Origin: a phage
DNA length: 64,000 nt
Reading direction: 5' to 3' (one strand)
Sequence record: NC_100371.1
The first letter of the stretch is position 1; every line of letters begins with the position of its first letter. Under the pieces are notes generated by a model. That model saw only the letters and a program-made list of their open reading frames with translations. It was not told the origin of the DNA and did not search any database. This document shows positions 5,269 through 53,625 of the stretch, in pieces. Both the position numbers and the translations under genes were made by a program.

Positions 5269-5279
5269 TATTTATTATT

Positions 5280-5354: not shown

Positions 5355-5355
5355 A

Positions 5356-5431: not shown

Positions 5432-5435
5432 AAAA

Positions 5436-5534: not shown

Positions 5535-5632
5535 TCAGCATGTTGACCATGTTGCTAGTCGGCGATGACGACTGTAACATTTGATAATCCGGTTCTGCTT
5601 CCGGCTTTCGCTTAATTACAAGGTCAACAATA

Positions 5633-5723
5633 TGGCAGAGGATAATGGAATCGAACCATCATCGAGTCATCCTCAACGGGACGGTTTTCAAGACCGCTTG
5701 AGCACCATTGCTCCCTACCCTCT
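5633..5723 (-). tRNA. tRNA-Ser (anticodon UGA), type II
   Basis: Acceptor AGAGGGT/ATCCTCT, anticodon loop CTTGAAA, long variable arm, T-arm GATGGTTCGATTCCATT, CCA. Confidence 0.7.
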
Positions 5724-5837
5724 TTTATAAACAATACTGATAATGACACTGATTTTCGAGCAGTTAGTGACTAGTATAAACGACGATAAATATCAATGCC
5801 ATTATCTGTATGATTTATGCATTTAAAAATATAAATT

Positions 5838-5925
5838 TGGTGGTGAGTGATGGAGTCGAACCACCCGAATCGCAATGATAACAGATTTACAGTCTGCCCC
5901 GCTACCCCTACGGAATTAACTCACC
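5838..5925 (-). tRNA. tRNA-Tyr (anticodon GUA), type II
   Basis: Acceptor GGTGAGT/ACTCACC, anticodon loop CTGTAAA, long variable arm, CCA. Confidence 0.7.
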
Positions 5926-6055
5926 TAAATACTAATATTTAAATTCTTTTTAAAATAGCTAGTGTTCTAACCACTAACTATGAGGTATCGGTAAAGTGGT
6001 TACCGCCACTTGCCGAAGATTTACTCTGCTAAAGTAAGCTACATTAAAAAGAACT

Positions 6056-6130
6056 TGGCACCCCGTACTGGACTCGAACCAGTGTCAACGGCTTAGAAGG
6101 CCGCTGCTTTATCCACTAAGCTAACAGGGC
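6056..6130 (-). tRNA. tRNA-Arg (anticodon UCU)
   Basis: Acceptor GCCCTGT/ACGGGGT, anticodon loop CTTCTAA, T-arm ACTGGTTCGAGTCCAGT, CCA. Confidence 0.75.
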
Positions 6131-35786: not shown

Positions 35787-36026
35787 ATGTATAAGTCATT
35801 TTCAATTTACTCAAGACAGGCAAAACACTACACAGAGATTCTGATCACTCAGAAAAAATCTGTGGAAGGTGAGTGGGAATATCATCATAAAATGTTGCGT
35901 CCAGACTGGGTTTTTGATAGGCTTATTGCTATGATCCCTCTTGGAGAAGTATACCCTCTGACAGGTCATAGGGATGCTTGGGATTTAATTGACTATATAG
36001 ATTCATTTAAGGAGCCTAGATTATGA
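35787..36026 (+). CDS. hypothetical protein
   Basis: ATG with AGAGGGGG RBS. Confidence 0.4.
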   Translation: MYKSFSIYSRQAKHYTEILITQKKSVEGEWEYHHKMLRPDWVFDRLIAMIPLGEVYPLTGHRDAWDLIDYIDSFKEPRL

Positions 36027-36421
36027 AGATTGAGATTACTGAAGAAGGTAAGAAAGTCTCTGGTAACTATGCAACAGTTATCCGTGATGTAATGTTCGAA
36101 GTCACTAAGATTGGCACATCCAAGGTTGGTCAAACGGTGAGTGTGCAAGGTAATATCACCTCAGGAGAGAAGATATTCATCGTGATAAAAGGCCAGGATC
36201 CTGTAGAAGGGACAGTTGGACGTGGTGGATACTTGTGTATCTCTGAAGAGCCTCGCATGCTAGTTGCTGATAACTCCACAGGTAAAAAGCGAGTATGTAA
36301 CACGGACGAGGTGATGATTATCTATCCAGTCAACCCGGATGATCCGGCAACATGGATTGTGGGAAATGAAATCTTCTCTTTAGAAGAGTTATCCTTCCCA
36401 GCTCCGCGATCTGTTCAGTAA
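36023..36421 (+). CDS. hypothetical protein, MKIEIT-type N-terminus
   Basis: 132 aa; N-terminus resembles members of the small acidic family downstream. Confidence 0.45.
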   Translation: MKIEITEEGKKVSGNYATVIRDVMFEVTKIGTSKVGQTVSVQGNITSGEKIFIVIKGQDPVEGTVGRGGYLCISEEPRMLVADNSTGKKRVCNTDEVMIIYPVNPDDPATWIVGNEIFSLEELSFPAPRSVQ

Positions 36422-36460
36422 TAATTTATCTTACCAGGGACGGTAAAAGCAGGAGGTAGC

Positions 36461-36694
36461 ATGAAAGTTAAATTTCTTACAGATTTAGGGTACCCTTCCT
36501 TGGTTGACTGCGTTGGTAAAATTGTGGAAGCAAAACGGCTATCTGCAAACGATAATGTTGTCATGGTTAAGGGAAAAGATTTACTAGCTGCAGGTGCAGA
36601 GTCTGGCAGGATCTCTCCTGACTATACGTATTACCTGTCTTTAAGTAATCTACCAGAACGAGGCGGCAAAGGCCTTGAAGTTGTGGAGGAGTGA
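36461..36694 (+). CDS. small acidic protein, paralog family A
   Basis: MKVKFLTD...KGKDLLAAGA...EVVEE; clear paralog of 40118 and 40332. Confidence 0.5.
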   Translation: MKVKFLTDLGYPSLVDCVGKIVEAKRLSANDNVVMVKGKDLLAAGAESGRISPDYTYYLSLSNLPERGGKGLEVVEE

Positions 36695-36699
36695 CAGGT

Positions 36700-37236
36700 A
36701 TGCTTCTGATTAACTGGGAAGACCTCTATGGGGACAAAGACCCTGTTGCGTTTGTTGATCGTAGGTGGAGGTACACTGAAGAACAACTGGCTGCAAAAAA
36801 TTTAACTGCAAAACGCAGAAAGATCATCCAGTGCAAGTACAAATACGCACAGTTTGCTGCAAAAGTGTCTCCACAAATCGAGAGTTTTGTACTTAAATTG
36901 TATGACGAGTACCTCAAATTCAAATTGGATTTTGTACAGGTATACCGTGCACAGGTACGTCCAGATACCAACATCTGCAGATGGAAGGTTGTTTGTGATG
37001 GTAAAGATTTGCCGCTCAGTTTGACAATTGAGTGGCGTTGGGGGTATCATGAGTGCGGTTTGTATGATATTTGGGATGTCATTGTAGATCCTGCTAAGTA
37101 CCTGAACACAGAGGAGCTGGAATATATCAATAAGGTTATTCTAGATATGTTTTTCAGCTACACCCATGAAAACTCTGAGAAAGAACGGGATAATTTTCTT
37201 GACACCCTCGGCAACCACCTGCAGTGTACAATTTAA
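36700..37236 (+). CDS. hypothetical protein
   Basis: ATG 9 nt after a GGAGGA RBS. Confidence 0.45.
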   Translation: MLLINWEDLYGDKDPVAFVDRRWRYTEEQLAAKNLTAKRRKIIQCKYKYAQFAAKVSPQIESFVLKLYDEYLKFKLDFVQVYRAQVRPDTNICRWKVVCDGKDLPLSLTIEWRWGYHECGLYDIWDVIVDPAKYLNTEELEYINKVILDMFFSYTHENSEKERDNFLDTLGNHLQCTI

Positions 37237-37254
37237 CCTACAAAGGAGGAGCCA

Positions 37255-37491
37255 ATGAGTATAGATGCTGTGCTGATAGGTTACCTGGTAGTAGCTGTTA
37301 TAACAGCAGTAATCTTGGCAGGTATATGCATCGTGTCTACACGAAGGGTGAAGTTTGATGATTTTATCACCATCATCACTGCTGCGCCCTTTTGGCCTGT
37401 TGTTATCTTCATCGTAATAATGTGCCTAGTTGATTACCACAAGAATATCCGTAAGGAGAAAAAGGAGAGTAGGGATGGATACCGCACCTAA
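37255..37491 (+). CDS. small membrane protein
   Basis: Two hydrophobic segments; AAGGAGGAG RBS. Confidence 0.5.
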   Translation: MSIDAVLIGYLVVAVITAVILAGICIVSTRRVKFDDFITIITAAPFWPVVIFIVIMCLVDYHKNIRKEKKESRDGYRT

Positions 37492-37710
37492 AACTGTTTA
37501 TACTGTTCTTAAAGAGATTGCGTTCTACGCAGATCTTAGCCGGGCACCTTTATGGGAAAAGAATATGTATTTAAAATGGTGCGTGAAATTAGGGGGGCCT
37601 TCTAATGTTTCAAGCCATGTTTATTGAAATGCTCTCTGGGGTATTACTGCTGGTAGCCATTTTGGGTGGCGCGGCACTGATGTATAATTATCTTGAAAAA
37701 GGGGACAGTA

Positions 37711-37896
37711 ATGACAAAAAATAAATCCTTAGAACAGGCTGAAAACCTTCTCCACGAGCTGGTAAAGGAGTGGAAAGTTGAATACTCAGATTTTAATGCA
37801 AGAGAGGGGGAAGATTATTGGCCTACAGAGCGCTCAGAGGGAGAGTGGTATCAAGATTTCATAGAATGGCTATATCAGACGTGCGATGAGGGGTGA
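37711..37896 (+). CDS. hypothetical protein
   Basis: AAAGGGGA RBS. Confidence 0.4.
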   Translation: MTKNKSLEQAENLLHELVKEWKVEYSDFNAREGEDYWPTERSEGEWYQDFIEWLYQTCDEG

Positions 37897-38354
37897 CGAT
37901 GTTTGTTAAATATGTAAAAACGTGCCTCAACAACCTTGGTAGAGAGCATTGGTACACACTGCTTGAAAAAGGAGAAATTTTAACAAAATCTGGAAAGATA
38001 ACTTTGATACCTTTGGACGATAAAGACCCGTCACTACTTGTCATAGATGATTACGTTACAGGTGTGTCGTACGAGGTATCTGTGGAGAGGTTAATACGCA
38101 GATCTGGAGGTCCTTATGACCGAAGAGAGTATGTTTTCGATTCCGTTACAGAGAAGGAAGATCCGTCCCTAATGTTTAGAATGGTAATCAGGGATATGAA
38201 ATCATCTATAAATAGGATCGTAAAGGACATTAAGGAGCCTTTTAGGGTAAAAGTTAAGAAGTTTTTTGATTCTAAGATCAACATACTCGCCGTTGTGCTA
38301 GGCGTAATTCAACTTCTGTTAATTTTGCACTATTTTGAACTGTTGTTTAAGTAA
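37893..38354 (+). CDS. hypothetical protein
   Basis: 153 aa; hairpin after the stop. Confidence 0.45.
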   Translation: MTMFVKYVKTCLNNLGREHWYTLLEKGEILTKSGKITLIPLDDKDPSLLVIDDYVTGVSYEVSVERLIRRSGGPYDRREYVFDSVTEKEDPSLMFRMVIRDMKSSINRIVKDIKEPFRVKVKKFFDSKINILAVVLGVIQLLLILHYFELLFK

Positions 38355-38414
38355 TGTGCATTATGGCACAAAGGATGTGCCATAATTAAATAAACTAAGA
38401 AAGAGGTAGAGAGA

Positions 38415-38762
38415 ATGTCAAAGATTAAATCGATATTAATGTGGGTGGCTGTTGTAGCTTTTGTAGGATACTGGACTTGGGAAACTGAATTAAAAGATAT
38501 TGGGTATACCAGCCTTGAGAGCAAGGCGTGCATTGGCATAACCGATGCATTCAGGCAGAATGCTATGGATCACGAATGTGTCGATGCAGATATAGATGAG
38601 AAACTGTCTAAGGACAAAGATTTTTACCATGGTCATGCCTTGCTTGATAGTGGTGACACTGTGGAATTCTGGTCGTGGTTCCGTGAAGATGGGACAATAA
38701 AGACAGCAGTAAAGATTTCCAACAAAGAGTTGATGCTGTTGCAGCAGAAGGAGGTGCAATGA
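38415..38762 (+). CDS. hypothetical protein with N-terminal transmembrane segment
   Basis: 115 aa; AAGAGGTAGAGAG RBS. Confidence 0.45.
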   Translation: MSKIKSILMWVAVVAFVGYWTWETELKDIGYTSLESKACIGITDAFRQNAMDHECVDADIDEKLSKDKDFYHGHALLDSGDTVEFWSWFREDGTIKTAVKISNKELMLLQQKEVQ

Positions 38763-39046
38763 TCTGGATATCCTACGCTGATGGCACCATGCTGTATACT
38801 GCAGGTACTAGATATGAAGTTAAGGAGGACGATAAAAAATTTATCGTAAAAACATTTGACAAGGACGACAACCTTTTGCTAGAATTGACTTACAAGGTTG
38901 GGGATGTATCTAGCATCCAATTAGATTGCGGTCATAAAGATAACCCGCTCAAGAAACCTGGGGTAGGTAAAGCTTCAGAAGAACGCCTGTCTCGTATTGC
39001 AGAAAGCGTTTCTGCACAAAAATCTAAAAAGGGGACTAGAAAATGA
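38759..39046 (+). CDS. hypothetical protein
   Basis: 95 aa. Confidence 0.4.
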   Translation: MIWISYADGTMLYTAGTRYEVKEDDKKFIVKTFDKDDNLLLELTYKVGDVSSIQLDCGHKDNPLKKPGVGKASEERLSRIAESVSAQKSKKGTRK

Positions 39047-39237
39047 AAAACTTACATTTTAACACTTATTACTACAACACTTTGAATGATTTGTATTATA
39101 TTGTTCGAAGTAAAAATCCTGAAACAGTCCTATTCTGCCGCGAACCTTTCAAAGGAGAGGAAGTGGAGTCTGAGATGAATGTTAGCCAGATTACCTCTTT
39201 GTTGCTCTCAGGTGCAATGGAAGAAGCAATATTCTAA
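39043..39237 (+). CDS. hypothetical protein
   Basis: 64 aa. Confidence 0.35.
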   Translation: MKNLHFNTYYYNTLNDLYYIVRSKNPETVLFCREPFKGEEVESEMNVSQITSLLLSGAMEEAIF

Positions 39238-39255
39238 ACCAGGCGGGAGGGTTTT

Positions 39256-39441
39256 ATGAAGCACTATTGTCTGTCTGGTAGGATGGGGGTGGATTGTGAT
39301 TGGGTTTTCTTAAAACTTGTCAGCGTTCGAGAGTCCATCCCAGAGGAAGAGCAAGAAAGTGAGCTGATGTCATGGATCAACTATTACGGCAACACTTTCC
39401 GGCATGTCAAAATGGAAGAGCTGCCAAACGAGGCTGATTGA
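39256..39441 (+). CDS. hypothetical protein
   Basis: 61 aa; GGGAGGG RBS. Confidence 0.35.
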   Translation: MKHYCLSGRMGVDCDWVFLKLVSVRESIPEEEQESELMSWINYYGNTFRHVKMEELPNEAD

Positions 39442-39536
39442 TTATGGTCGCATCAATATTAACGTTTATGGGTGGCGTGGCATTCGGATTCATTCTTTGT
39501 CTGTTTATAGTTATCATGGCTATGCGAGGCTGAATT

Positions 39537-39821
39537 ATGAAACTGTTCGAGTGGTTTAAAAAGTTTAAATACCAGGCTGTTGCTGTATCGAAATGGACCG
39601 TCCGCTGGGTGGACGATGATGGAACACAAATTCCCGGTGATCAGGATACCGGATACTGGGTTATGATGGAGAACGGATTTGGGAAAAGGAAGTTTAAATG
39701 TGTTGGTGCTCCTACTCTTTTAAATGTTAGAAGTGTGCCAGGGTACAGCACTATGGTTGTTTGGGAGCTATCCGGTGTTCCTCCTGCTAATGTGCAATAT
39801 CTGCCAAACCAAGAAAAATAA
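39537..39821 (+). CDS. hypothetical protein
   Basis: 94 aa. Confidence 0.4.
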   Translation: MKLFEWFKKFKYQAVAVSKWTVRWVDDDGTQIPGDQDTGYWVMMENGFGKRKFKCVGAPTLLNVRSVPGYSTMVVWELSGVPPANVQYLPNQEK

Positions 39822-39833
39822 AAGGAGAAGATA

Positions 39834-40118
39834 ATGAGCAATGGTGTTAGCAATAGTGCTGCAGAGTTTAAAGTGATCTGTAAAGGAACTTATTGGATAG
39901 TGAAACAGAAAGTGTACCTATTCGGTTTCATACCGTTTTGGCAGAGATTTTGCTGGGGAGCTAACGAGCTTAAGAGATACGCAACCAAGGCTATGGCACT
40001 TATTGGTATAGCTGAATACATTGCTGCCAGGGACAGAGAGGGTAAAACTTGTTACTACACTGCTGACGAGATTCGTAACAGTGTTTACGTTCCACAACCG
40101 CCCGATGGAGACCGCTGA
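39834..40118 (+). CDS. hypothetical protein
   Basis: 94 aa; AAGGAGAAG RBS. Confidence 0.4.
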   Translation: MSNGVSNSAAEFKVICKGTYWIVKQKVYLFGFIPFWQRFCWGANELKRYATKAMALIGIAEYIAARDREGKTCYYTADEIRNSVYVPQPPDGDR

Positions 40119-40342
40119 TGAAAGTTAAAGTTTTAGATTCAAGCTTCTATATTGGTCAGGAGCCCTTAGTGGGGAAAGTGTTTACCGCTATCCCTAACGA
40201 AGATTATCCTGACCTTTTAAAAATAAAAGGTGCAGATCTTATTGCCGCTGGTGCATCCCAGGAATGCTTTGACAGTCAGTGGACCTACAACTTTGCCCTA
40301 GGAGAGGATGTGGAGATAGTGGAGGACGATCATGAAGGTTAA
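40118..40342 (+). CDS. small acidic protein, paralog family A
   Basis: MKVKVLDSSFYIGQ...KGADLIAAGA...EIVEDDHEG. Confidence 0.5.
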   Translation: MKVKVLDSSFYIGQEPLVGKVFTAIPNEDYPDLLKIKGADLIAAGASQECFDSQWTYNFALGEDVEIVEDDHEG

Positions 40343-40586
40343 AATTCTTGACTCTAACGTCTACTTGGGACAATCCTTCCTGAAAGGAAAGGTAGTACCT
40401 GCTGTATACTTCGAAGGGTTGCCGTGGGACGATCCTGTGCGGCAAAATCACAGCCATGTAGGCCACAATGTGGTGTTCATCTTGGGATCAGACCTGATCG
40501 CGGCTGGTGCCCCGGAATATTATTTCGGAGAGGACTCGTATTATGCCTTTGGGGCAGGGTCAGATGCAGATATTTTAGAGCTGTGA
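40332..40586 (+). CDS. small acidic protein, paralog family A
   Basis: MKVKILDSNVYLGQ...GSDLIAAGA. Confidence 0.5.
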   Translation: MKVKILDSNVYLGQSFLKGKVVPAVYFEGLPWDDPVRQNHSHVGHNVVFILGSDLIAAGAPEYYFGEDSYYAFGAGSDADILEL

Positions 40587-40598
40587 TGGGGAACTGTT

Positions 40599-40997
40599 GT
40601 GAAAAATAAACTGTTCAAAGTTACAATGAAAATTCGCGGAGCTTGGAGCGTAAAGCAAGGGCGTATCCCCGAATTTGAGAAAGACTTCTACGTAGTCTCC
40701 ACCTCGGAGGAGGCTGCATGCTGGCAGGCTGGCTATGCCTATGCAAGAACCTGGTACGAAGGATACCAGACTGGAGGCTATGACGGAGAAATTGTCAGTA
40801 AGGGTGTGGAAGAAATTAATGTGTTGACAAGTGAAAAAGTTTTTGTTATAGTGCATCCAGATTCCAGAGTGAAGCATTACTGGAATGCCAGAACAAAAAC
40901 CTGGACACCGTTTGCAGATTCTGCTACACCACTTTTAAACCAGAAAGCTCTTGACTCTGCCCCAAGCTATGGGGTTGTTGAAGAAAAGATAAGCTGA
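40599..40997 (+). CDS. hypothetical protein, paralog family B
   Basis: ...VIVHPDSRVKHYWNARTKTWTP... is paralogous to 42804-43199. Confidence 0.45.
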   Translation: MKNKLFKVTMKIRGAWSVKQGRIPEFEKDFYVVSTSEEAACWQAGYAYARTWYEGYQTGGYDGEIVSKGVEEINVLTSEKVFVIVHPDSRVKHYWNARTKTWTPFADSATPLLNQKALDSAPSYGVVEEKIS

Positions 40998-41014
40998 AAT
41001 AGTGGGGTGCTTAC

Positions 41015-41305
41015 ATGATGGATTTAGTTTTGGACGCTGATAACACCGGATCGTTTAAAAAAGATGGTGTAATAAGCATGGACCAATCCTGCGATGTCAA
41101 GATTGACTCAAAATGGACCTACAAGTTTGACGGTGAGATCTTCGCAAATGATGAGAAGGTCGTGGATGCTGTAGCCATTTTAAACGCTTTAGGGTATGAC
41201 CCTGTGAACTCATTGATCAAGGATCCTGTTGAGTTTGCAGAGTATGTTCGTAAAATGGCAGATCTTGCAGTAGATATTTTAAAAACTATCGACAACAAGT
41301 TGTAA
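41015..41305 (+). CDS. hypothetical protein
   Basis: 96 aa. Confidence 0.4.
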   Translation: MMDLVLDADNTGSFKKDGVISMDQSCDVKIDSKWTYKFDGEIFANDEKVVDAVAILNALGYDPVNSLIKDPVEFAEYVRKMADLAVDILKTIDNKL

Positions 41306-41310
41306 AAACT

Positions 41311-41339
41311 GTTGACACAACGCTTCAGATTTAGTATCA
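41311..41339 (+). promoter_or_regulatory. sigma70-like promoter
   Basis: TTGACA-N17-TATCAT upstream of the HPF-like gene. Confidence 0.55.
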
Positions 41340-41386
41340 TTGTTTTCAAAGAGGGGTTGGTCCCTCTTCTTTAAAAGGAACACATT

Positions 41387-41704
41387 ATGCAAATTGAAAT
41401 CACTGGCAACGTAGAGATCACTGAAGGTATGGTGTCTTTCATTTCCAACAAAATGTCCAAGCTGGAGCGTTTGCACCCCTCTGCCAACTATGCACGTGTG
41501 AGTGTAAAAGTTGAAAATGATCACCAGGAAGTTATGGCTTTCATTTTTGACACTTCTGGAAAAGAAGTTATCGCCAAAGCTAAAGGTAGTGATGCTTACG
41601 AGGCAACTGACCGTATGGTAGATGTTGCAGCACGCCAGTTGGCTAAGTGTGGTGGAAAGAAAGGTAAGGGAAAAGGCAAAGTAAAGATTGACTTTTTAGA
41701 TTAA
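41387..41704 (+). CDS. ribosome hibernation promoting factor (HPF/RaiA/YfiA)-like protein
   Basis: MQIEITGNVEITEGM...KLERLHP...RVSVKVE...AKAKGSDAYEATDRMVDVAARQLAK parallels bacterial HPF (MQLNITGNNVEITEAL...); Lys/Gly-rich tail. Confidence 0.6.
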   Translation: MQIEITGNVEITEGMVSFISNKMSKLERLHPSANYARVSVKVENDHQEVMAFIFDTSGKEVIAKAKGSDAYEATDRMVDVAARQLAKCGGKKGKGKGKVKIDFLD

Positions 41705-41841
41705 GGTGCTACAATGGGCACGATTAAGAAATTAATCCCAAATGTGGAGATTGCATGCTTTGAAATTATGTTTGCAATCGCAGTTGTAGTTAATGTGTTA
41801 GGTTACGGCTATTAATATCAAATAATTGAGGAGACCTCTAA

Positions 41842-42111
41842 ATGAAAATTAAATTATTCCAAACTGAGCTGGCAGACAAAAACTGTGGACTGGTTGAAGG
41901 CATGATCGTTGAAGCACAACCAGTTGACTACATGAAGGTGGTTCGTGATGCCCTGGGTGAAGGTTTTGATCTGATGGAGCCAGCTCTGCGAGAAGATGTC
42001 ATCGAAATGGCTAAAAAGCACACACCGGAAGGTTTGGTAGTGTTTGTTGCTCCAGGTAATGGAGAGGAGTTGATTGTAACTCCGGATGTGTATGAGGTTG
42101 TAGAAGAGTAA
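41842..42111 (+). CDS. small acidic protein, MKIK-type
   Basis: 89 aa ending EVVEE. Confidence 0.45.
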   Translation: MKIKLFQTELADKNCGLVEGMIVEAQPVDYMKVVRDALGEGFDLMEPALREDVIEMAKKHTPEGLVVFVAPGNGEELIVTPDVYEVVEE

Positions 42112-42203
42112 TCCTGCTTGGGTTGGAATACTTTCCTCGACAAGAAAGGTTTATAATTATTTGTGGGAAAGGAATCCCCATCTCTTACCAGAGGTGATAC
42201 TAT

Positions 42204-42467
42204 ATGATTGTTTATTTTAAAACTTCAGGTGGATACCCTGATTCTCAAAGCTTGATTGGAAAAACGTGCACAGCATACTCACCTCTTGATGAGGAGGTAA
42301 GTGGTATCCTACGAGATATGTATCGGATTGATCCACAAGAAGCTTTTGATCAAAACCTTGTATTTGTCAAGGGATCAGACATAAAGTCTTTGGGGGCATT
42401 CCCTGAAGCAGATGATGATGCTGTTTATTCGTTTATGACACCTTTTGAAGCTATGGTTGTGGGGTAA
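42204..42467 (+). CDS. small acidic protein
   Basis: 87 aa. Confidence 0.45.
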   Translation: MIVYFKTSGGYPDSQSLIGKTCTAYSPLDEEVSGILRDMYRIDPQEAFDQNLVFVKGSDIKSLGAFPEADDDAVYSFMTPFEAMVVG

Positions 42468-42471
42468 GAAT

Positions 42472-42804
42472 ATGAAAGTACGCTTTATTGGTGAAACAAT
42501 TCCTGTGCATCTCCGGTCTCCTGAAGACTCTGCAGATCTTGCATCTCAAAAGGCGAGAGGGTATGATAAGAAAGTGATCTCAAGCAATGTAGAGCTTGAG
42601 GCCACCAGTCTGCCTGACCCAGCTGCATTCTTCAATCATTATGGCTACTATTTTAGCAATCTGATGAATATTGGTGAGCTTGTGTTTATTAGTGGTGGAG
42701 AGATAGTTAGCAAGCTTGGTGGAGATCCGGATATCTTTCATGAAACCTGTCCTTTTGCATTTGTGGTGGGTTCAGATGTGGAAGTTATTGAGGAGGTTCG
42801 GTAA
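42472..42804 (+). CDS. small acidic protein, MKVR-type
   Basis: Internal ATG at 42472 chosen; ends VIEEVR. Confidence 0.45.
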   Translation: MKVRFIGETIPVHLRSPEDSADLASQKARGYDKKVISSNVELEATSLPDPAAFFNHYGYYFSNLMNIGELVFISGGEIVSKLGGDPDIFHETCPFAFVVGSDVEVIEEVR

Positions 42805-43199
42805 TGGTAAGTCTATACCGTGTTGAGTATAGCTCGGATACTGTATACAACGTAAGAAGCAAAGATCGCAGTGATAGAGTGCAAGAAATGTATGTTCTTG
42901 CAGATAGTCCGTTATCTGCAGCGTTCAAGGCAGGAGCTCTTGCATCTCGTTGGAAATTTGAGGGTGGATCTTTCTATGAAGAAACCCTTGAAGATTCTGT
43001 TGTTATTTCTTCTGTAGAGGTTTCAACCGACTACGAAGGGAAAAAGTTCGTAATGCGGCACCCACACAGCAATATTGCGTACTACTGGGATGTTCTGAAC
43101 AATGAGTGGACCCCTGATCTTCAGAAGGCCACTGTTCTAACCCCATTCCTGGCAGATAAGTTCCCACCAGAAGGTAATTTATCTGCACTGTTTCAGTAA
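42804..43199 (+). CDS. hypothetical protein, paralog family B
   Basis: ...VMRHPHSNIAYYWDVLNNEWTP... is paralogous to 40599-40997. Confidence 0.45.
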   Translation: MVSLYRVEYSSDTVYNVRSKDRSDRVQEMYVLADSPLSAAFKAGALASRWKFEGGSFYEETLEDSVVISSVEVSTDYEGKKFVMRHPHSNIAYYWDVLNNEWTPDLQKATVLTPFLADKFPPEGNLSALFQ

Positions 43200-43275
43200 T
43201 TTTATGCCACACAGGTGTTGACAACACCAACCCTGTGTGCAATAATACCTTCATCTTAACAAGATAGGAGACCGA

Positions 43276-43536
43276 TTGATGAAGATTAAATTGAAAAACC
43301 TTGAAACGGCAGAGATTCAGGAAGGTGTTGATTTCCGTTCTAAAGATGGAGACATCCTAGAGGCGAATGTCCCGACATATAAGTTGATTAAAGGTTTTGG
43401 CAACGTTCCGGAGGAGGATATTACAGACATTCTTATGATGTTGATCCTTGACGGGACTGTGTTTGTAGGTGAAGGTGAGAACGCTATTGCAATCCCGAGC
43501 CATTTTTATGAAGTAGTTGACGAAGAGGTGCTGTAA
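43276..43536 (+). CDS. small acidic protein, MKIK-type
   Basis: 86 aa ending EVVDEEVL. Confidence 0.45.
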   Translation: MMKIKLKNLETAEIQEGVDFRSKDGDILEANVPTYKLIKGFGNVPEEDITDILMMLILDGTVFVGEGENAIAIPSHFYEVVDEEVL

Positions 43537-43887
43537 ATGAAAGTAGAGATCACAGGTTTTGATATGAATGCGGTTCCGGAAGATATTTTAGCTAAACTCC
43601 CGGAAGGTTTTGGTAACGGTGTTGTGGTTGATGCTGTTCCTCCTACCAAAGACATCCTGCTGCAGTATGGTGTGGCAGAGGAAGATGTTGATAAAGTTCT
43701 TACAATGATGGCAATCGACCGTGTTGTCGTTGTTAAAGGTCTTGAAGGTTTTGATAACGATCCTCTGATTATTCGTGGTGATGACTATCGCATCATCGAC
43801 AACGAAGGCCAAGAGTTCTACGAACCTTCTGCTGAAGATGTTCTTAACTTACTACTGGAAGCAGGCACCGAAGAGGAGGAAGAATAA
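43537..43887 (+). CDS. small acidic protein, MKVEIT-type
   Basis: 116 aa with poly-Glu C-terminus. Confidence 0.45.
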   Translation: MKVEITGFDMNAVPEDILAKLPEGFGNGVVVDAVPPTKDILLQYGVAEEDVDKVLTMMAIDRVVVVKGLEGFDNDPLIIRGDDYRIIDNEGQEFYEPSAEDVLNLLLEAGTEEEEE

Positions 43888-44216
43888 TGAAAATTGATCC
43901 GTTACTGAAGGCTCGTGCAGAAAAAGCATACACTATCAAGCTGACCTCTCTGGTCCCTACTTGTCATCCGGATGTAGGTTGGCCTGAAGGCTTGGTAGAG
44001 GGGACTGTAACAGCTGCATACCTTCCTAACATCAAATACCTCATGGAGATCTTGGAGATGGATGAGGAAACGGCAGAACAGTTCCAGTTAGACATGAAGC
44101 AAAGTGGGACTCTGGTTATTCACGGGTGGTATAATACTAAAGATGCAGAAGATCCCCTGGTAACTTCTAATCTGGCATATGAGATCTTAGGGCCTTTGAA
44201 CTTGGGGGAAGACTAA
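43887..44216 (+). CDS. hypothetical acidic protein
   Basis: 109 aa. Confidence 0.4.
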   Translation: MKIDPLLKARAEKAYTIKLTSLVPTCHPDVGWPEGLVEGTVTAAYLPNIKYLMEILEMDEETAEQFQLDMKQSGTLVIHGWYNTKDAEDPLVTSNLAYEILGPLNLGED

Positions 44217-44503
44217 TGAAAGATTTGGTTAAGATCAAGATTAAAGACACCAATGGAGAACTCAGCCATTTTGGAATTAACGATGGTGACGAGCTGATCG
44301 CCCACCTGCCTACCAAGGAAGTTGTAAGCAAAGCGGTTGCCGGAGAAGAAGATGCAATGCAGGCTGCAGGTGTGGATGAAAACTATGTAGCAATGTGTAT
44401 GTGCCGAGATCAGGTTGTTCTGTATAAAGCGTATCGACCAAATGGAGCACCTGAGTGGCTTGTTTTCCGACCAGAAGGGTATGAAATTTTAGAGACGCTA
44501 TGA
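44216..44503 (+). CDS. hypothetical acidic protein
   Basis: 95 aa. Confidence 0.4.
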   Translation: MKDLVKIKIKDTNGELSHFGINDGDELIAHLPTKEVVSKAVAGEEDAMQAAGVDENYVAMCMCRDQVVLYKAYRPNGAPEWLVFRPEGYEILETL

Positions 44504-44592
44504 TAAATCCTGCCAAGGTTGCAACGGCACTGTTAATTATTTGCTGGATAGTGACCTTGGCACTATGTCTTGTATTTCATTAAGGGGGCTGT

Positions 44593-44856
44593 ATGAACAT
44601 CTTGGTGTGGGTTGTAGCAGTAGCGTTTGTTGCGTGCCTCTCTTGTTGGGTTGCTGTGAGGATTTCTATAGCCACTCTTCGGAAATTAGGGTTCTCAGAG
44701 TGGGATATTGATATCCTTTCTTTTCGCAATGAGACAATCTCAGCCGCCCTGCTGTGTAAGAAGTTTAAGTGGGAACCTTGTGAGGTCATGAACTATCTAA
44801 GAACAGGAGATATTCCTGAGAGATTTAAAAAAGTTCTTGACGGCAAAGACAAATGA
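44593..44856 (+). CDS. membrane protein
   Basis: N-terminal transmembrane helix. Confidence 0.45.
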   Translation: MNILVWVVAVAFVACLSCWVAVRISIATLRKLGFSEWDIDILSFRNETISAALLCKKFKWEPCEVMNYLRTGDIPERFKKVLDGKDK

Positions 44857-44884
44857 TAGTATAGTGACTAACAAGAGGTGAGGA

Positions 44885-45025
44885 ATGACTGATTTTACTG
44901 AAGCTTTAATGATGGCCTTATCTGTTTTAGCGCTATCGGTGTGTTTTGGGGCGTTATTCACATCTCTAGTTAAAGTTTTACATACCATATTCTCACCCAA
45001 GGAGCACAGTAATGACGAAGATTGA
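44885..45025 (+). CDS. small hydrophobic peptide (46 aa)
   Basis: Strong RBS AAGAGGTGAGGA; hydrophobic core; not in the ORF track (shorter than 60 aa). Confidence 0.4.
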   Translation: MTDFTEALMMALSVLALSVCFGALFTSLVKVLHTIFSPKEHSNDED

Positions 45026-45263
45026 CTTAAATGCTGGCGACCATGTTGTTGTCAAATGCATCGGGGATTATCTTGGATTCACAATCGGCAATACTTACGA
45101 GGCAGTGGTGGCGAAGGTTTATCATGATAAAGTCCTTAGCCTTGTATTTGACTGCGATGATGACGGAGATGACCGTTACGTCTGTGAGGTGCTGGCACGT
45201 GACGATAGTGAAGACCAGAAATTCCTGGTTATCGAACTGAACGGTATTTTTGTAGAACGTTAA
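45012..45263 (+). CDS. hypothetical acidic protein
   Basis: 83 aa. Confidence 0.4.
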   Translation: MTKIDLNAGDHVVVKCIGDYLGFTIGNTYEAVVAKVYHDKVLSLVFDCDDDGDDRYVCEVLARDDSEDQKFLVIELNGIFVER

Positions 45264-45291
45264 TTTAAAACAATATAAGGAGACTCTTACT

Positions 45292-45597
45292 ATGGCTAAA
45301 TCTAAAGTTGAACTGTTCACCTCTCTTCCTTCTGACATTGCAGAGCGTGATCGCCTCCGTAAAACAATTGAAGAGCTGGTGGAACTTCAGCTTCAGATTA
45401 AAGATCTGAAAGACGCTATCAAGGATATTATTCTTGTCGAGAAACAGGATCACCTGTACTCTCCTAAGTTTATCAAGTCTTTGGTGGCTACCGAATTCGA
45501 TATCCGCTACGAAGCTGAAAAACGTCGGGCTAAAATCGAAGAAGAGGTTGAGCACATGTCTGAAGCAGACATTCTGTTCAAACGCTCTGCAGAATAA
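45292..45597 (+). CDS. hypothetical coiled-coil protein
   Basis: 101 aa; AAGGAGA RBS; terminator follows. Confidence 0.5.
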   Translation: MAKSKVELFTSLPSDIAERDRLRKTIEELVELQLQIKDLKDAIKDIILVEKQDHLYSPKFIKSLVATEFDIRYEAEKRRAKIEEEVEHMSEADILFKRSAE

Positions 45598-45603
45598 CGA
45601 CAA

Positions 45604-45629
45604 AGAGGGGCCTTGGCCCCTCTTTTTTA
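45604..45629 (+). terminator. rho-independent terminator
   Basis: AGAGGGGCC-TT-GGCCCCTCT hairpin followed by TTTTTT. Confidence 0.6.
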
Positions 45630-45651
45630 CTATCTATGAAGGAGATCAGAG

Positions 45652-45978
45652 ATGCTAATGCCGGTTACTGTAAAAGAGCTAAATGAACGTGATGCAGGGG
45701 GCCTGTGGCCTGCACGGAAAATACGCTGCGTCTATATGAAAGAGAATCTTGAGCACCTTGATCAGCAGATTGCGGTTGGTGATATTTTCGAAGTTCTCTA
45801 TTCTAATCGTCGCAACTGGGAAACCATTCAACCTTCCGGTTTTGTTCTTGCCAGACTTGATACTGGAGAAGTGATTATCCCTGGGCTGGACATTGTCTTC
45901 GAAATTATCCAGGAGTGGGATCCTGATAAGATTAAATATGAAGAGTTATTCGGTGAAGGTATTATCAAACCTGTGTGA
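45652..45978 (+). CDS. hypothetical protein
   Basis: 108 aa; AAGGAGA RBS. Confidence 0.45.
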   Translation: MLMPVTVKELNERDAGGLWPARKIRCVYMKENLEHLDQQIAVGDIFEVLYSNRRNWETIQPSGFVLARLDTGEVIIPGLDIVFEIIQEWDPDKIKYEELFGEGIIKPV

Positions 45979-45986
45979 GGTGGATT

Positions 45987-46286
45987 ATGTCTACAACGAC
46001 AGCTAAATACTCCTATATGCCAGCAACCTCAGCAGAAATAGACTTCAGTTTCGATGTGTTTCCATTGTTTGAGGTGGTTCTGGCATACCCAACAATACTA
46101 TCTACTCCTGAATCCCTTGTACCTGTTAAGTTGCAGAACGCTATGCACTCCATGCACTACAACAATAAATGTAGGCACAGATGGTGTCAAGACGAGGAAA
46201 AAGATCTGGAGAGTTTGAAAGATTTTGACAGTCACCTTTTGACACCTTTTAGTTACTCAAACCTAGACAAGCCTTCATGGGTATAG
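45987..46286 (+). CDS. hypothetical protein
   Basis: ATG at 45987 with GAGGTGG RBS. Confidence 0.4.
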   Translation: MSTTTAKYSYMPATSAEIDFSFDVFPLFEVVLAYPTILSTPESLVPVKLQNAMHSMHYNNKCRHRWCQDEEKDLESLKDFDSHLLTPFSYSNLDKPSWV

Positions 46287-46310
46287 CAAAGTATCAAATT
46301 TAAGGCACAT

Positions 46311-46338
46311 AGGACGCTCTGTGGCGTCCTTTTCTTTA
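46311..46338 (+). terminator. rho-independent terminator
   Basis: AGGACGC-loop-GCGTCCT hairpin followed by TTTTCTTT. Confidence 0.55.
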
Positions 46339-47022
46339 TCCGGTGAACGATTCCATACCTTAAGCAGTTAATCTCATTACAGAGCGTTTAAGGGCGGCTT
46401 ACAAGCAACTCTCTATTTCGAGCGTAGCGAGAACGCACGTCCGTTTTGACCAAAATCACCATACGCTCGGATTTTAACCAAACCCTCGCGGCGCTTCTGT
46501 TGACACATTACCGCTCCTGTGATAGTATCCGCACATCGTTTGAAGAATATGGGATACACAATGAAAACATTGTCAGAGGTTTTAGTGGTGATCCTGATAA
46601 TCATTGCGTCCATAGCGGCTGTTGCCGGAATATGCTTATAGCATCGACACGTTCCAGCCATATGTCGATAAAGTCTTATTTTTTAAACATGTTGCCGGAA
46701 TACTCACGGGTGGAACATGACCAACACACATGCATCTAAAGAGACATCTGAAGGGGTGACAGAGGAAAACTTCAATTCTGAGGATTCTCTATCTCCGTCC
46801 CAGGTGGACCCTGAGGCTGATGACCTGACGTGGGAGGATATCATAGCCATCTGGTTCTCTATTATGCCTGAGCACGAAGAGTTCAGAGGTGGGAGACTAT
46901 GAAGCACCGAGCCCACATAAGTTTATCATGCTAAAGCATGGCCTGAAGGGGCAAACGTGTATAATTCTAGCGTATTGGAACGTATAAACCCTGTTCACAC
47001 TCTCATTTCCAGAGGAGATTTC

Positions 47023-47238
47023 ATGAAAATAGAGATATTTGGTGGGGCTGACAACACTCGTGGCCTGATTTACCTTGAATTTGATGAATCTTATCTGCCA
47101 GAGGTGTTAAATATAGATGCTGTTGCGGAAGCCCTTGATGTAGACCCTAAAGATCTCTACTCTGGTGCTGAGATTGATGGTTGGGAAGAGACTCTGAACA
47201 TTGATTTCAGTGAAGTAGTGGGTGAACCTTTGGACTGA
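47023..47238 (+). CDS. small acidic protein, MKIEIF-type
   Basis: ATG with AGAGGAGA RBS; last plus-strand gene before the ORF-free region. Confidence 0.45.
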   Translation: MKIEIFGGADNTRGLIYLEFDESYLPEVLNIDAVAEALDVDPKDLYSGAEIDGWEETLNIDFSEVVGEPLD

Positions 47239-47377
47239 CACACAAGTCTGCTTTGCAGGTTTAGCTGCCCAGCTAAGGTTCTGGAGGCACCTATAACATC
47301 TTTCAACTAAATTTCCTACCAACACAGTTACTTACCCACCACACATAACTGTTTGCTTGTTTAGTGAGCAGTCATCC

Positions 47378-47405
47378 CTTGACATTCTTGCCTATCTTGA
47401 TAAAA
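47378..47405 (+). promoter_or_regulatory. sigma70-like promoter with no ORF downstream
   Basis: TTGACA-N16-TAAAAT reading into a purine/GC-rich stretch with no credible ORF. Confidence 0.4.
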
Positions 47406-48766
47406 TTAAGTTCTTCTCTTTTCTTTTACCGAGTAATTCGGGTTTTCTGTTCTCTTCGGTTTGAAGGGGTATGGAGATACACCTGAGTGAACAGGGTGAA
47501 CAACCGAACATTTGGCTATGGCATTAGCATGGCGAAGCGGACGGGTGACGAAAGAGGGGCCGGAGGACACCAGTCACTGCCATATAGTATATGGGTGATA
47601 ACCTGAAGAGTCTGAATAAGTGTTTAAGTACCAGTCAGAGGAAAAGGTGAATGGTAGCCGAAGGGGGAGAGGGGGTTTCTTATATCTTTAATTTGTATAT
47701 TATGTATACACTTGTAAACCAATTCAATTAGGATCTGTTTACCACACAAAGTGGATGGAGACAAATATCACCTATTAAACTTGAATTATTTATAGAAAAT
47801 ACCACAACACCTCTTAAGTATTTGATTTTACACACAAATCTTACAAATATCCTACCTCCATATTTAACATACTTGTAACATATTCCATATCCTACCTGCC
47901 TGATCAATTTACTCCCACCACATCCCCACATTTTCCCTGTCTGTACTACCCCTGCCCCGCCGGGAGTCCCGTCATATCTGGCTTTCCAGCAAATATCGCA
48001 CCCACAAATATCATCACCTGAAGAGGGTTTCATCCCATAATACCTGCCTTACCTGAAGAGCGCTTCATACACCACGTAAATTTTTTAATTGACCCCTCCC
48101 CGCCGCCGGAGAGGTTGGCTTTTCCCACACAGGCCTGAAGAGTCAGCCAGAAATATCTGAACAGGTCCAGTTATACCCCGATTTTGTGCCTGTCCTACAG
48201 GAGTGCTGCCCTGTCAGGAGCCGGTAGCGACTGGAGTGCTGCCAGGCGGACGGAATGGGAATACTTCTCATTTTTATAATAATTCTCAAATATCGAGGCA
48301 GTGAGGCAAATTAATAGGCCAGGCCGTTCACACAGTGGCACAACATTTGCAATCTATCTTGTGGGAGTGAATGAGAATACCTATCATTGTGAGAATGGTT
48401 ATCATTACGGGCAATTTAACATAATACCCATTATGCGCACCACTGGCGATACATACAGGGATTGATAACATGGGTTACTGTTTACGCATATAACAATTAT
48501 ATTTCTTACTATTTGTGTGGGATATAGTTAGCAACCAATAGATTAGATATTGACCTGCAGACTTCTGACCGTCCAGACGTCTAAACGCCCACACAGCAAG
48601 GATTATACATACACTCCTGCATGTAAACAGGACCGCAAAAATGCTACCATACCAGTTTGTAAATTTTTCATGCAGCACTTGACAAAGAGGAGAAAAACTT
48701 GTCTGACACACTGGACACAATGTCCCACAATATGACACAATAACGGCTGTTACTATTCCATATCTC

Positions 48767-48824
48767 ACTGTTTACGCATAGACTGTTTACGCCTGAATAG
48801 TTTACGCAAAAACTGTTTACACAG
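48767..48824. repeat. four tandem iteron-like direct repeats (ACTGTTTACGC)
   Basis: Copies at 14-17-bp spacing; further copies near 48477, 49231 and 49267. Confidence 0.55.
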
Positions 48825-48833
48825 AGATGATAA

Positions 48834-49066
48834 GCCATGCCATTCGTTTGCATGAAAACAATTAACAAGCTAACAATCTATGACATAATATAAAAGCAGG
48901 GCAACTATTAGAAGATCTATAGTTGCCTTGCTTGTTATGTCATGATTAACTAAATACAAGGCAACTATGATCTGAATAATAGATTGCAGACAAACTATCA
49001 CGGGGGTGATTGTTACTGCTTTTATATTATGTCGCGACTCCGTCGCGCCATGCCATTCGTTTGCAT
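48834..49066. repeat. dyad-symmetric element bounded by a 20-bp direct repeat
   Basis: GCCATGCCATTCGTTTGCAT at 48834-48853 and 49047-49066; inverted 18-mers GACATAATATAAAAGCAG / CTGCTTTTATATTATGTC; several GGCAACTAT/ATAGTTGCC palindromes. Confidence 0.5.
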
Positions 49067-49681
49067 AGTTGCCTTATTGTTACAGGTAAAACAATTACAT
49101 TATTAATTATTTCTTATCTTTCTCTTAGTCATCTAATGATTCCAGTCAGTATAGTAATGTACAGTAAACATTAGACGACTAAAGATTTCTCTGTGTATAA
49201 TAACTTATCGTGACAATTTCGAACTGTTTACGAAAAATGTTGACACCTGAGCTGATTTATGTTATGCAGTTTACACGAATAATTATTTTATGCAGGTATT
49301 GACTATTCCGTTATTCTGTGGTTGGAATAAATACTTTGCAGACTATAGAATGGCGTGCGTACGTGAATTCTGAGATCTGGCGGCTATAGTTATACTCGAT
49401 TTTTCGCGTAGAACACGCTTTCGATGCTGTGTAAGTGTATGACTTATAAAGATTTTTAGTTGTTGACAAGATATTGGAGATGTGCATCAGGTTAAAATTT
49501 GTGCAATAGCGGCATTACGTGCACTTTTGGGAGAGAAAACGGGTAAAAATGGCCCTGCTACCACACAATGAAAGATTATGCAATAGTTATTTTCCATGTA
49601 TATTTGTACAGTATGTGGGATTGATGGCTAGTCAATTATTCCACTTGCCAGGTAGGGCCGTTTATGGTAGGAGAAGAGCAG

Positions 49682-49709
49682 ACAAAAAGAAAGGGGCCTT
49701 TAAGCCCCT
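49682..49709 (-). terminator. rho-independent terminator ending the minus-strand gene block
   Basis: AGGGGC-loop-GCCCCT hairpin followed by a T-tract on the minus strand. Confidence 0.55.
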
Positions 49710-49728
49710 TGATAATTCAGTTAAGAAA

Positions 49729-50148
49729 TTATAATGATTCGTATATTTCAAAAATCCGATTTGCCAGGTCGTTACGGTAGCGGAATTTTTCATCGCGCTT
49801 GATCATTAAATCCTTATAGCCGTACTCTTTAAGCACTTCATTAACTTTATAGCGGCATACCTGCATATTATCTTGAGCGTCACCAATAAACTTGTTGCTG
49901 TGGTGCATTGCTTTAATTTCTTCTTCCAGGACCAGGGCAACTACCCGGACCGGATCAAGCTGATAGGCGGTAACATCTATGCGGCATTGTAGACGGCTTT
50001 TAACGTCTGCCACCGGATATACTGCAACCTCTTCCCCGTCAACATTGACAATAATTAGTTTACCATCGATTTCGAATCCTTTCGCCGCCGGACCGTGACA
50101 AAAAGCGTTATCAAAGCTATATGCCGGATTATCAGATTTAATGTTCAT
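49729..50148 (-). CDS. hypothetical protein
   Basis: 139 aa; AAGAGGTAAAAAC RBS. Confidence 0.5.
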   Translation of the reverse strand: MNIKSDNPAYSFDNAFCHGPAAKGFEIDGKLIIVNVDGEEVAVYPVADVKSRLQCRIDVTAYQLDPVRVVALVLEEEIKAMHHSNKFIGDAQDNMQVCRYKVNEVLKEYGYKDLMIKRDEKFRYRNDLANRIFEIYESL

Positions 50149-50197
50149 GGTGTTTTTACCTCTTAGTTAATTTTCTTACAACTTCCCTTCAAAAAAG

Positions 50198-50226
50198 AAT
50201 ATAGCAAAACTGCCGATCCCTGTCAA
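50198..50226 (-). promoter_or_regulatory. sigma70-like promoter
   Basis: Minus strand TTGACA-N17-TATATT. Confidence 0.5.
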
Positions 50227-50292
50227 CAAGGGATAGCATAATTTTTATGTGATCAAGGGGCTTTATCGCCCCTGACCATGCAACCTGTTGTA

Positions 50293-50556
50293 TTATTTGT
50301 TGCTCATCCAGTTTTCCCAAGCTGCCTGATAATCTGCCTCACTACGGCGGATCTCTTCTTGTTCTTCAAGCCGGATCTCTTCTTCCAGGTACCCCAAGAT
50401 ATCGGCTTTTTTGGTCTGGCGTAACATCCAATCGTCTTTTTTGCGAGTAAAGATCTTGTACGCTTTCTCGCAAACTTCTTTTTTGCTACCTTTTTGGACT
50501 TCAAGAATTCTGTAAGCCATGTACTGAACTAGTTTGAGCTGGTCAAGACGTTTCAT
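50293..50556 (-). CDS. hypothetical protein
   Basis: ATG at 50556 with AAGAGGAAAAC RBS. Confidence 0.45.
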   Translation of the reverse strand: MKRLDQLKLVQYMAYRILEVQKGSKKEVCEKAYKIFTRKKDDWMLRQTKKADILGYLEEEIRLEEQEEIRRSEADYQAAWENWMSNK

Positions 50557-53274: not shown

Positions 53275-53625
53275 TTATTTTGCATTATTTCCTATATTGC
53301 CGCCACGGTACCAGCGTTTACGGTGAAAATGGTAATAATCGCCATCGGCATTGAACATCAGATGGTTTTCAATAACCAGCTTACGAAGGTGGGCCGGATC
53401 TTGTTCCATTCTTGCCAGACTCTGGCGGCTGTTACGTAAGCGGATAAATTCCATATTCAGGCCGTTGATTGCAGCATGGATGTCAAAGTAACCACCTTTG
53501 AGACGTTCACGCATGGCGTTAATCTCAACACAATATACAGATTTCTCACAAATCAAGGTATTAGCCAGGGCGCGGACCTGGGCAAGGGGGTTAAGCTCAT
53601 TAAGGTAATATAGTTTTACTTTCAT
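53275..53625 (-). CDS. hypothetical protein
   Basis: 116 aa; weak RBS. Confidence 0.4.
   Translation of the reverse strand: MKVKLYYLNELNPLAQVRALANTLICEKSVYCVEINAMRERLKGGYFDIHAAINGLNMEFIRLRNSRQSLARMEQDPAHLRKLVIENHLMFNADGDYYHFHRKRWYRGGNIGNNAK

Follow-up and report, generated by a model that had tools for sequence, protein, structure and literature searches.

Paralogous families of small acidic proteins in a Vequintavirus genome include a three-gene unit whose orthologs are required on one clinical Escherichia coli isolate

Why should a phage carry, side by side, many small acidic proteins that resemble one another at both ends? The question is raised by a block of ∼37 closely packed small plus-strand genes at 36-47.3 kb of a 64,000-nucleotide (nt) stretch of sequence record NC_100371.1 (hereafter the window, to which all coordinates refer), which derives from a Vequintavirus, an rV5-like Escherichia coli myophage. 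An initial annotation, made from the sequence alone, had described the open reading frames (ORFs) between 36023 and 47238 as a tandem array of paralogs with duplication of a multi-gene unit and had guessed that they encode DNA mimics or defence inhibitors. We compared the encoded proteins by all-against-all blastp, profile-profile comparison, and hidden Markov model (HMM) searches that covered all 488 ORFs of the 64-kb window. Formal alignments and profiles show that tandem paralogous families are indeed present, and we name these A, B, and C, with genes designated by their start coordinates. The gene order A-A-B occurs twice, and the orthologs of the second of these units in the sister phage Bas54 are dispensable on E. 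coli K-12 and strictly required on CFE311, a uropathogenic E. coli (UPEC) isolate.

Family A consists of five genes in the window:

36461..36694, plus strand: family A member of 77 amino acids (aa); phrog_5009 at E 2.5e-36, matched to 40118 by blastp and hhalign
40118..40342, plus strand: family A member of 74 aa; first gene of A-A-B unit 1; the modelled member
40332..40586, plus strand: family A member of 84 aa; second gene of unit 1; blastp E 5e-14 to 40118
42204..42467, plus strand: family A member of 87 aa; first gene of unit 2; E 4.9e-14 with the broad family A HMM, weak match to phrog_5009
42472..42804, plus strand: family A member of 110 aa; second gene of unit 2; E 4.8e-9 with the broad family A HMM

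The first three had been recognized earlier by a shared GxDL(L/I)AAGA core (GKDLLAAGA in 36461, GADLIAAGA in 40118, and GSDLIAAGA in 40332), and they are clear paralogs, with blastp E values of 5e-14 and 1.5e-7, hhalign values of 96-99.6%, and matches to phrog_5009 for all three. The other two, 42204 and 42472, had been missed. A profile built from 67 family A sequences matches all five ORFs at E 2e-27 to 5e-9, the next ORF following at E 0.29. A full-length match runs from an MKVK start in strand 1 through GK(V/I)xxA in strand 2, the GxDLxAAGA turn, and an aromatic residue in strand 4 to an E(V/I)(V/I)E end. Length varies in the loop between β2 and β3, where 40332 has a short insertion, 42204 one of ∼20 residues, and 42472 one of ∼45 residues; 42472 aligns with both 40118 and 40332 at 91% by hhalign. 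The genes 40118 and 40332 overlap by 11 nt. The subfamily of 36461 is common to lambdoid prophages, and 36461 itself forms a clade with the prophage sequences P0031 and P0107 (95% bootstrap).

Family A extends well beyond the genus. An exhaustive HMMER search returned 83 representatives at E<1e-3, whereas a word-indexed search found only 40 clusters. Stand-alone proteins of 65-80 aa make up most of these, some consist of tandem repeats inside one protein, and one homolog, P0135, carries a C-terminal DUF3310 fusion. In E. coli lambdoid prophages the family occupies the moron slot between the Q antiterminator and the holin, and it is also found in mEp phages and in Vibrio phage CHOED. A search for wider loci, performed with a 12-sequence subset of the alignment, located tandem arrays of five, three, and two copies in unrelated viral contigs, one of them flanking a T7-type DNA polymerase. 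Given these arrays and the prophage slot, family A is accessory and mobile in character.

A further ORF that follows the first B gene, 41015-41305 (96 aa), has a DSKWTYKF segment almost the same as the strand 4 segment of 40118, DSQWTYNF. A 27-nt direct repeat (40269-40295 and 41103-41129) underlies the likeness, and the hhalign probability is 31%; the ORF may represent a decayed family A member to which a helical tail has been joined.

Family B is represented by two genes:

40599..40997, plus strand: family B member 1 (B1), 132 aa from a GTG start; third gene of unit 1; paralog of 42804
42804..43199, plus strand: family B member 2, 131 aa; third gene of unit 2; aligned through HPxS...YYW...WTP

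That these two form a second family had been proposed from shared residues, and the proposal holds: they are full-length paralogs at 27% identity (blastp E 9e-10), both match phrog_7379 (E 1e-66 to 1e-73), and HPxS...YYW...WTP is common to both. An alternative ATG start of 40599 at 40626 would give 123 aa, as relatives are annotated. Only 6 family B clusters were found among 5.8 billion proteins, all on Vequintavirus-sized contigs, and family B is thus a genus-confined protein of ∼131 aa.

It had also been observed that each family B gene follows a pair of small acidic ORFs. Both pairs turn out to be family A, so that the order A-A-B occurs twice, an arrangement expected with p ∼8e-5 in random order. 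Of the duplication of a multi-gene unit that was deduced from this, the repeated order stands, but a trace in the DNA and a pairing of the A genes do not. A repeat search for DNA-level duplication gave only 20- to 30-nt matches at chance level, one of which reflects the common GSD codons of 40332 and 42204. We rejected a one-to-one pairing of the A genes between the units, as neighbour-joining bootstrap values were only 5% for 40118 with 42204 and 0.7% for 40332 with 42472; the two A genes of unit 2 grouped together in 48%. Segmental duplication is a plausible origin of the repeated order, with functional linkage as the alternative. The paralogs are old (25-40% identity), and every member is under purifying selection, with ratios of nonsynonymous to synonymous substitution (dN/dS) of 0.01-0.27 against Bas54, rV5, and phage WM (0.10-0.16 for 36461, 0.10-0.27 for 40332, and 0.00-0.04 for 42804). 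Comparison of copy number across related phages, a check proposed with the initial annotation, found the array at 41800-44550 complete in 117 of 118 matching Vequintavirus records, and copy number is therefore fixed within the genus.

Phenotypes for these genes come from Bas54 (phage MaxBurger), which was subjected to transposon sequencing in the HIDEN-SEQ preprint (Humolli et al., bioRxiv 10.1101/2025.11.20.689424). The Bas54 block is collinear with the window, and blastp orthologs of the mapped family members and their neighbours share 87-100% aa identity; the non-family gene 39834 shares 76% with its ortholog. For unit 2 the identity is 96-98.5% (96.6% for 42204 and 98.5% for 42804). On K-12, every gene of the Bas54 block was classed as non-essential or intermediate (bioRxiv 10.1101/2025.11.20.689424). 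The resampling of K-12 versus CFE311 (Extended Data Table 8 of bioRxiv 10.1101/2025.11.20.689424) gives the following log2 fold changes (log2FC) on CFE311:

bas54_0152, ortholog of 42204 (A): log2FC -7.16, zero reads, q=0
bas54_0151, ortholog of 42472 (A): log2FC -6.17, zero reads, q=0
bas54_0150, ortholog of 42804 (B): log2FC -6.77, zero reads, q=0
bas54_0157, ortholog of 40599 (B1): log2FC -2.14, q=0
bas54_0153, ortholog of 41842 (C): log2FC -2.78, not significant
bas54_0063, a MoxR ATPase gene outside the mapped block: log2FC -7.23, q=0
bas54_0140, ortholog of 45987-46286: log2FC -5.48, q=0

Knockouts validated bas54_0063 and bas54_0140 as genes directed against DS-28, a predicted defence system of E. 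coli CFE311 that bas54_0140 is required to overcome (bioRxiv 10.1101/2025.11.20.689424). The depletion of unit 2 is as strong as that of these two validated anti-defence genes, and the ortholog of bas54_0140 is found in this block too, 2.8 kb further downstream. The earlier guess at defence inhibitors thus receives indirect support for unit 2, while the other family A and C orthologs were unaffected. The window ORF orthologous to bas54_0140 spans 45975-46286 (ATG at 45987; 93% aa identity) and is named "portal vertex protein" in one annotated relative, probably a mis-annotation.

Family C has three firm and two probable members:

41842..42111, plus strand: family C member of 89 aa; full-length hhalign alignments to 43279 and 44216
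43279..43536, plus strand: family C member of 85 aa; the modelled member
43537..43887, plus strand: family C member of 116 aa; blastp E 7.7e-4 and hhalign 37% to 43279; acidic C-terminal extension
43887..44216, plus strand: probable family C member of 109 aa; family C HMM E 0.036 among 488 ORFs; full-length but weak alignment
44216..44503, plus strand: probable family C member of 95 aa; family C HMM E 0.016 among 488 ORFs

The links within this family are looser, with 41842, 44216, and 43887 joining it only at hhalign values of 11-18% or at HMM E values of 0.016-0.036 in the 488-ORF set. A tblastn search with the family C consensus found nothing beyond Vequintavirus. The family C model matches a 95-aa protein of Escherichia phage ECP32 in BFVD (Foldseek probability 1.0, template modelling (TM) score 0.60-0.67, 24% identity), most likely the ortholog of 44216, and also an 86-aa protein of Vibrio phage Vc1; apart from this structural match in a Vibrio phage, the family is confined to the genus. 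A third BFVD match, to an 83-aa protein of Shigella phage CM1 (Foldseek probability 0.99, TM score 0.52), is possibly the ortholog of the 83-aa ORF at 45012-45263 and hints that more small genes of the block may encode SH3-like barrels.

AlphaFold2 with family alignments gave confident models for 40118 of family A and 43279 of family C (predicted local distance difference test scores of 91.7 and 89.8). Both are predicted as five-strand SH3-like barrels, with strand 1 formed by the MK(V/I)K start and strand 5 by (Y)E(V/I)(V/I)E at the C-terminus, and their best structural matches are SH3, KOW, and PsaE domains; the models superpose on these as members of the SH3-like fold class. The predicted family A barrel comprises ∼70 residues, runs from MKVK(L/I) in strand 1 to E(V/I)(V/I)EE in strand 5, and has a short helix at GxDLxAAGA, a turn that looks invariant. 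In the family C model, strands 2 and 3 are separated by an insertion of two helices, in the same loop that carries the insertions of 40332, 42204, and 42472. These models suggest a common origin of A and C. Profile-profile comparison of the two families gave hhalign probabilities of 1.6% with the shallow and 4.4% with the broad 67-sequence family A profile, over strands 1-2 only. We do not claim a single A+C superfamily, as neither the shallow, the per-ortholog-group, nor the 67-sequence profile ever reached significance. No Pfam family, including KOW (PF00467), matched any A, B, or C member at E<0.1, and searches of PDB sequences with the A and B profiles found nothing below E 0.1.

Two ORFs of the block share the start of families A and C and stand apart from them:

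36023..36421, plus strand: ORF with an MKIEI start, 132 aa; phrog_5748
47023..47238, plus strand: very acidic ORF with an MKIEIF start, 71 aa; phrog_12108; last gene of the block

Profile-profile comparison gave no significant link of 36023 to A, B, or C, and 47023 aligns with family C over its N-terminal 7-8 residues only. The ORFs with this start, first seen as one family, therefore divide into A, C, and these two. The only ORF of the window with such a start outside the block, 53275-53625 on the minus strand (116 aa, MKVKL), matches none of the three family profiles.

The block as a whole appears to be transcribed by the host. Its promoters and terminators are as follows:

41312..41340, plus strand: sigma-70-like promoter, TTGACA-17-TATCAT (11/12); P144 in the rV5 annotation; upstream of the HPF gene
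43218..43246, plus strand: sigma-70-like promoter, TTGACA-17-AATAAT with extended TG; P150 in the rV5 annotation; upstream of the run of four family C genes
45602..45625, plus strand: intrinsic terminator, 10-bp GC-rich stem followed by a T run; annotated in rV5
46311-46330: strong terminator; rV5 annotates only 45602..45625 of this pair

The first promoter heads the unit HPF-C-A-A-B, and the terminator at 45602..45625 closes the transcription unit holding the family C run. Because consensus sigma-70 promoters are present and the same ones are annotated in rV5, the block is predicted to be an early accessory region driven by host RNA polymerase. The gene at 41387-41704, inside the array and directly downstream of the consensus promoter, encodes a homolog of the ribosome hibernation factor HPF/RaiA (Pfam PF02482, E 1e-12), and the ortholog in Bas54 is non-essential on K-12 and likewise on CFE311.

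We consider it somewhat better than an even chance (a probability of about 0.55) that the array encodes small host-protein binders for counter-defence or host range, with unit 2 as a candidate module of this kind. The proteins are small, soluble, and acidic and would be made early from sigma-70 promoters of the host type. Each paralog would act as a stoichiometric binder of a different host protein outside the core lytic programme, and binding would take place through the predicted barrel and its variable loop. The requirement on CFE311 would then reflect neutralisation of a strain-specific immune system, and the other paralogs may do the same job against other targets.

Several points weigh against this proposal. 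A requirement that appears on a single strain may stem from the physiology of that host instead of its immunity. The remaining family A and C paralogs have no phenotype on CFE311, a single clinical strain, and no diversifying selection is seen within the genus in the dN/dS comparison with three relatives. The relation between A and C rests on fold class and a shared insertion site, with profiles that are not significant. The phenotype itself comes from a sister phage and from the supplement of one preprint. There, sheet S6, which bears the label CFE303, appears to duplicate sheet S7 (CFE311), with identical rows and the same TRANSIT command line (B54_2_311 library), so that the CFE303 comparison seems to be missing from the deposited file. 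The genes bas54_0150 to bas54_0152 go unmentioned in the preprint, and knockouts were built for bas54_0063 and bas54_0140 only (bioRxiv 10.1101/2025.11.20.689424). Finally, 42204, 42472, and 42804 are tightly coupled, which makes local polarity onto 42804 possible.

A possible, though clearly less probable, account takes family A, perhaps with family C as a helix-bearing offshoot, as a widespread, hitherto unrecognised superfamily of SH3-like specificity modules for counter-defence, which would expand into tandem arrays because every paralog neutralises an immune protein of its own, and A-A-B, with its genus-specific B protein, as a three-component inhibitor of a UPEC defence system. Unlikely in our judgement is that the proteins are host-takeover factors that act on conserved machinery such as transcription or translation, for example as KOW- or Tudor-like decoys, with the need on CFE311 a matter of physiology. 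The structural matches to KOW would fit, but the Pfam searches returned neither KOW nor another family, and the HPF gene of the same unit is itself without phenotype. Moreover, to be fully dispensable on K-12 and indispensable on a clinical isolate, as these genes are, is what the preprint treats as the signature of anti-defence.

We also think it rather improbable that only the B gene of unit 2 is required on CFE311, that the two A genes are depleted through local polarity or translational coupling, and that the role of families A and C is unrelated or redundant. The spacing of the genes favours it, since 42467 and 42472 are 4 nt apart and the stop codon of 42472 overlaps the start codon of 42804 at ATGA, and so does unit 1, where B1 is significant and its two upstream A genes are not. 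The same unit speaks against it, because insertions in the A genes upstream of B1 were not depleted, and polarity is therefore not general. Insertions in bas54_0153 and bas54_0155, which lie upstream in the same operon, were tolerated as well. The transposon used carries no terminator, and its authors reason that polar effects are not widespread (bioRxiv 10.1101/2025.11.20.689424).

Two further explanations turn on the acidity and the shared ends of the proteins. Nine ORFs of the block, and not at least ten as first counted, begin with MK[VI][KERD][IVLF], or eight if position 4 is strictly K/E. Their clustering is real, since the 64-kb window has only 10 ORFs with this start and the block accounts for 9 of them. 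The acidic tails are likewise real, although the last codons double as the Shine-Dalgarno sequence of the downstream gene in 6 of 10 cases (GAGGAG being read as Glu-Glu), and acidity is not limited to the tails. With the last 6 residues removed, the net charge of most members is still -4 to -16. The array proteins have isoelectric points (pI) of 4.0-4.7 and net charges of -6 to -21, the median pI of the broad family A is 4.5, and the whole block is acidic (median pI 4.7). The E(V/I)(V/I)EE end also occurs where no gene adjoins (41842 and 44216) and in homologs from unrelated phages. On the models, the shared termini would be barrel strands combined with ribosome-binding sites.

This acidity throughout would suit DNA mimics, which imitate the phosphate backbone and block restriction enzymes or other DNA-binding defence proteins, as the initial annotation had suggested, but the models are compact SH3-like barrels whose best matches are not known DNA mimics, and we find this idea poorly supported and quite improbable. 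Ocr, ArdA, and Arn are also small, strongly acidic early phage proteins; they are elongated helical charge arrays, whereas the window proteins are predicted as a compact barrel and acidity is not universal in the family. Least credible, likewise poorly supported and for families A and B largely refuted, is that there is no family-level biology and the termini are by-products of translation signals in a packed operon (Lys at codon 2; a GAGG Shine-Dalgarno in the upstream stop region): the coincidence of tails with ribosome-binding sites and the nonsignificant comparison of A with C agree with it, but A and B are paralogous with high significance over their full length, the acidic end persists away from adjoining genes and in unrelated phages, and the models place the two termini in barrel strands at high confidence.

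The genes are already in databases as hypothetical proteins and are not a new kind of element. In PHROGs, family A corresponds to phrog_5009, phrog_13920, and phrog_13661, family B to phrog_7379, and family C to phrog_11868, phrog_12359, phrog_12155, phrog_12457, and phrog_12794, all listed as "unknown function" and matched by the window proteins at E 1e-31 to 1e-74. There, family A is split into three and each family C member stands separately, and neither the paralogy of 42204, 42472, and family C nor the tandem arrays are captured. The closest known fold systems are the SH3-like small β-barrels (SH3, KOW of Spt5/NusG, PsaE, and Tudor/Kin17). Anti-CRISPR loci, the early anti-defence genes of T4, and bas54_0140 are likewise small, early, clustered, and dispensable on laboratory hosts, and the window genes resemble such clusters further in their mobility among phages and prophages and in being essential only on a certain host strain. 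They differ in that neither their sequence nor their fold resembles any characterised anti-defence protein and in that most of the paralogs lack a phenotype in the one clinical strain. The early lactococcal phage protein SaV (DUF3310) contacts the abortive-infection protein AbiV (PMC11373665). The likeness to SaV is confined to the single DUF3310 fusion in the distant family A homolog P0135, and DUF3310 is absent from the window proteins. The family structure of the block, the SH3-like fold, the family A arrays across unrelated phages, and the link between a unit and a phenotype appear undescribed in the literature that we searched.

Conservation extends over the whole block. The region 36000-47300 matches Escherichia phage ECP32 at 98.9% identity, is kept at ≥90% identity over ≥80% of its length in 115 of 122 matching phage records, and is found at ≥89% identity in ∼117 Vequintavirus records. 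Among the sequences >90% identical across the region are 18 records of "Campylobacter phage" (MG0656xx, host Campylobacter jejuni), whose host labels look doubtful. A segment of ∼2 kb with six small genes (37893-39821) is absent from Bas54, where bas54_0160, the ortholog of 39834, directly adjoins bas54_0161, the ortholog of 37693; indels thus make the block variable, even with A, B, and C arrays that stay fixed. Upstream of the block are genes for a ClpP-like protease and an N6-adenine methyltransferase. Rfam and tRNA scans of the block and the adjoining intergenic region were empty.

Downstream, ∼3 kb without genes (47300-50300) separates convergent gene blocks, and the GC skew switches sign there. 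The stretch has an AT-rich core (34-37% GC at 48.6-49.5 kb), three iteron-like repeats with 15-nt spacing (GTTTACGC...TGTTTAC, 48770-48820), and one more copy of the repeat at 48480. It also contains a 20-nt direct repeat that is exact (48834 and 49047) and an 18-nt inverted repeat that is perfect (48882-48899 and 49016-49033). No transposon insertions were tolerated in the homologous intergenic region of Bas54 (bioRxiv 10.1101/2025.11.20.689424), and the stretch looks like a replication origin. Elsewhere in the window, a tRNA cluster (Pro, Met, Thr, Ser, and Arg) lies on the minus strand at 5192-6130 and includes a 99-nt tRNA-like gene (5436-5534) to which ARAGORN assigns a four-base anticodon (atcc).

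Vequintavirinae are phage-therapy candidates with a broad host range, and no function is known for most of the early genes that they carry. A strong and undiscussed signal of conditional essentiality in a clinical E. coli strain can now be tied to a defined three-gene unit, two genes of which belong to a family outside Pfam that recurs in arrays of unrelated phages and prophages. If the counter-defence proposal is right, family A would serve as a marker for accessory, host-range-determining loci; if it is wrong, the annotation remains, with three families of paralogs, two of which have a predicted fold class, and an explanation of the shared termini.

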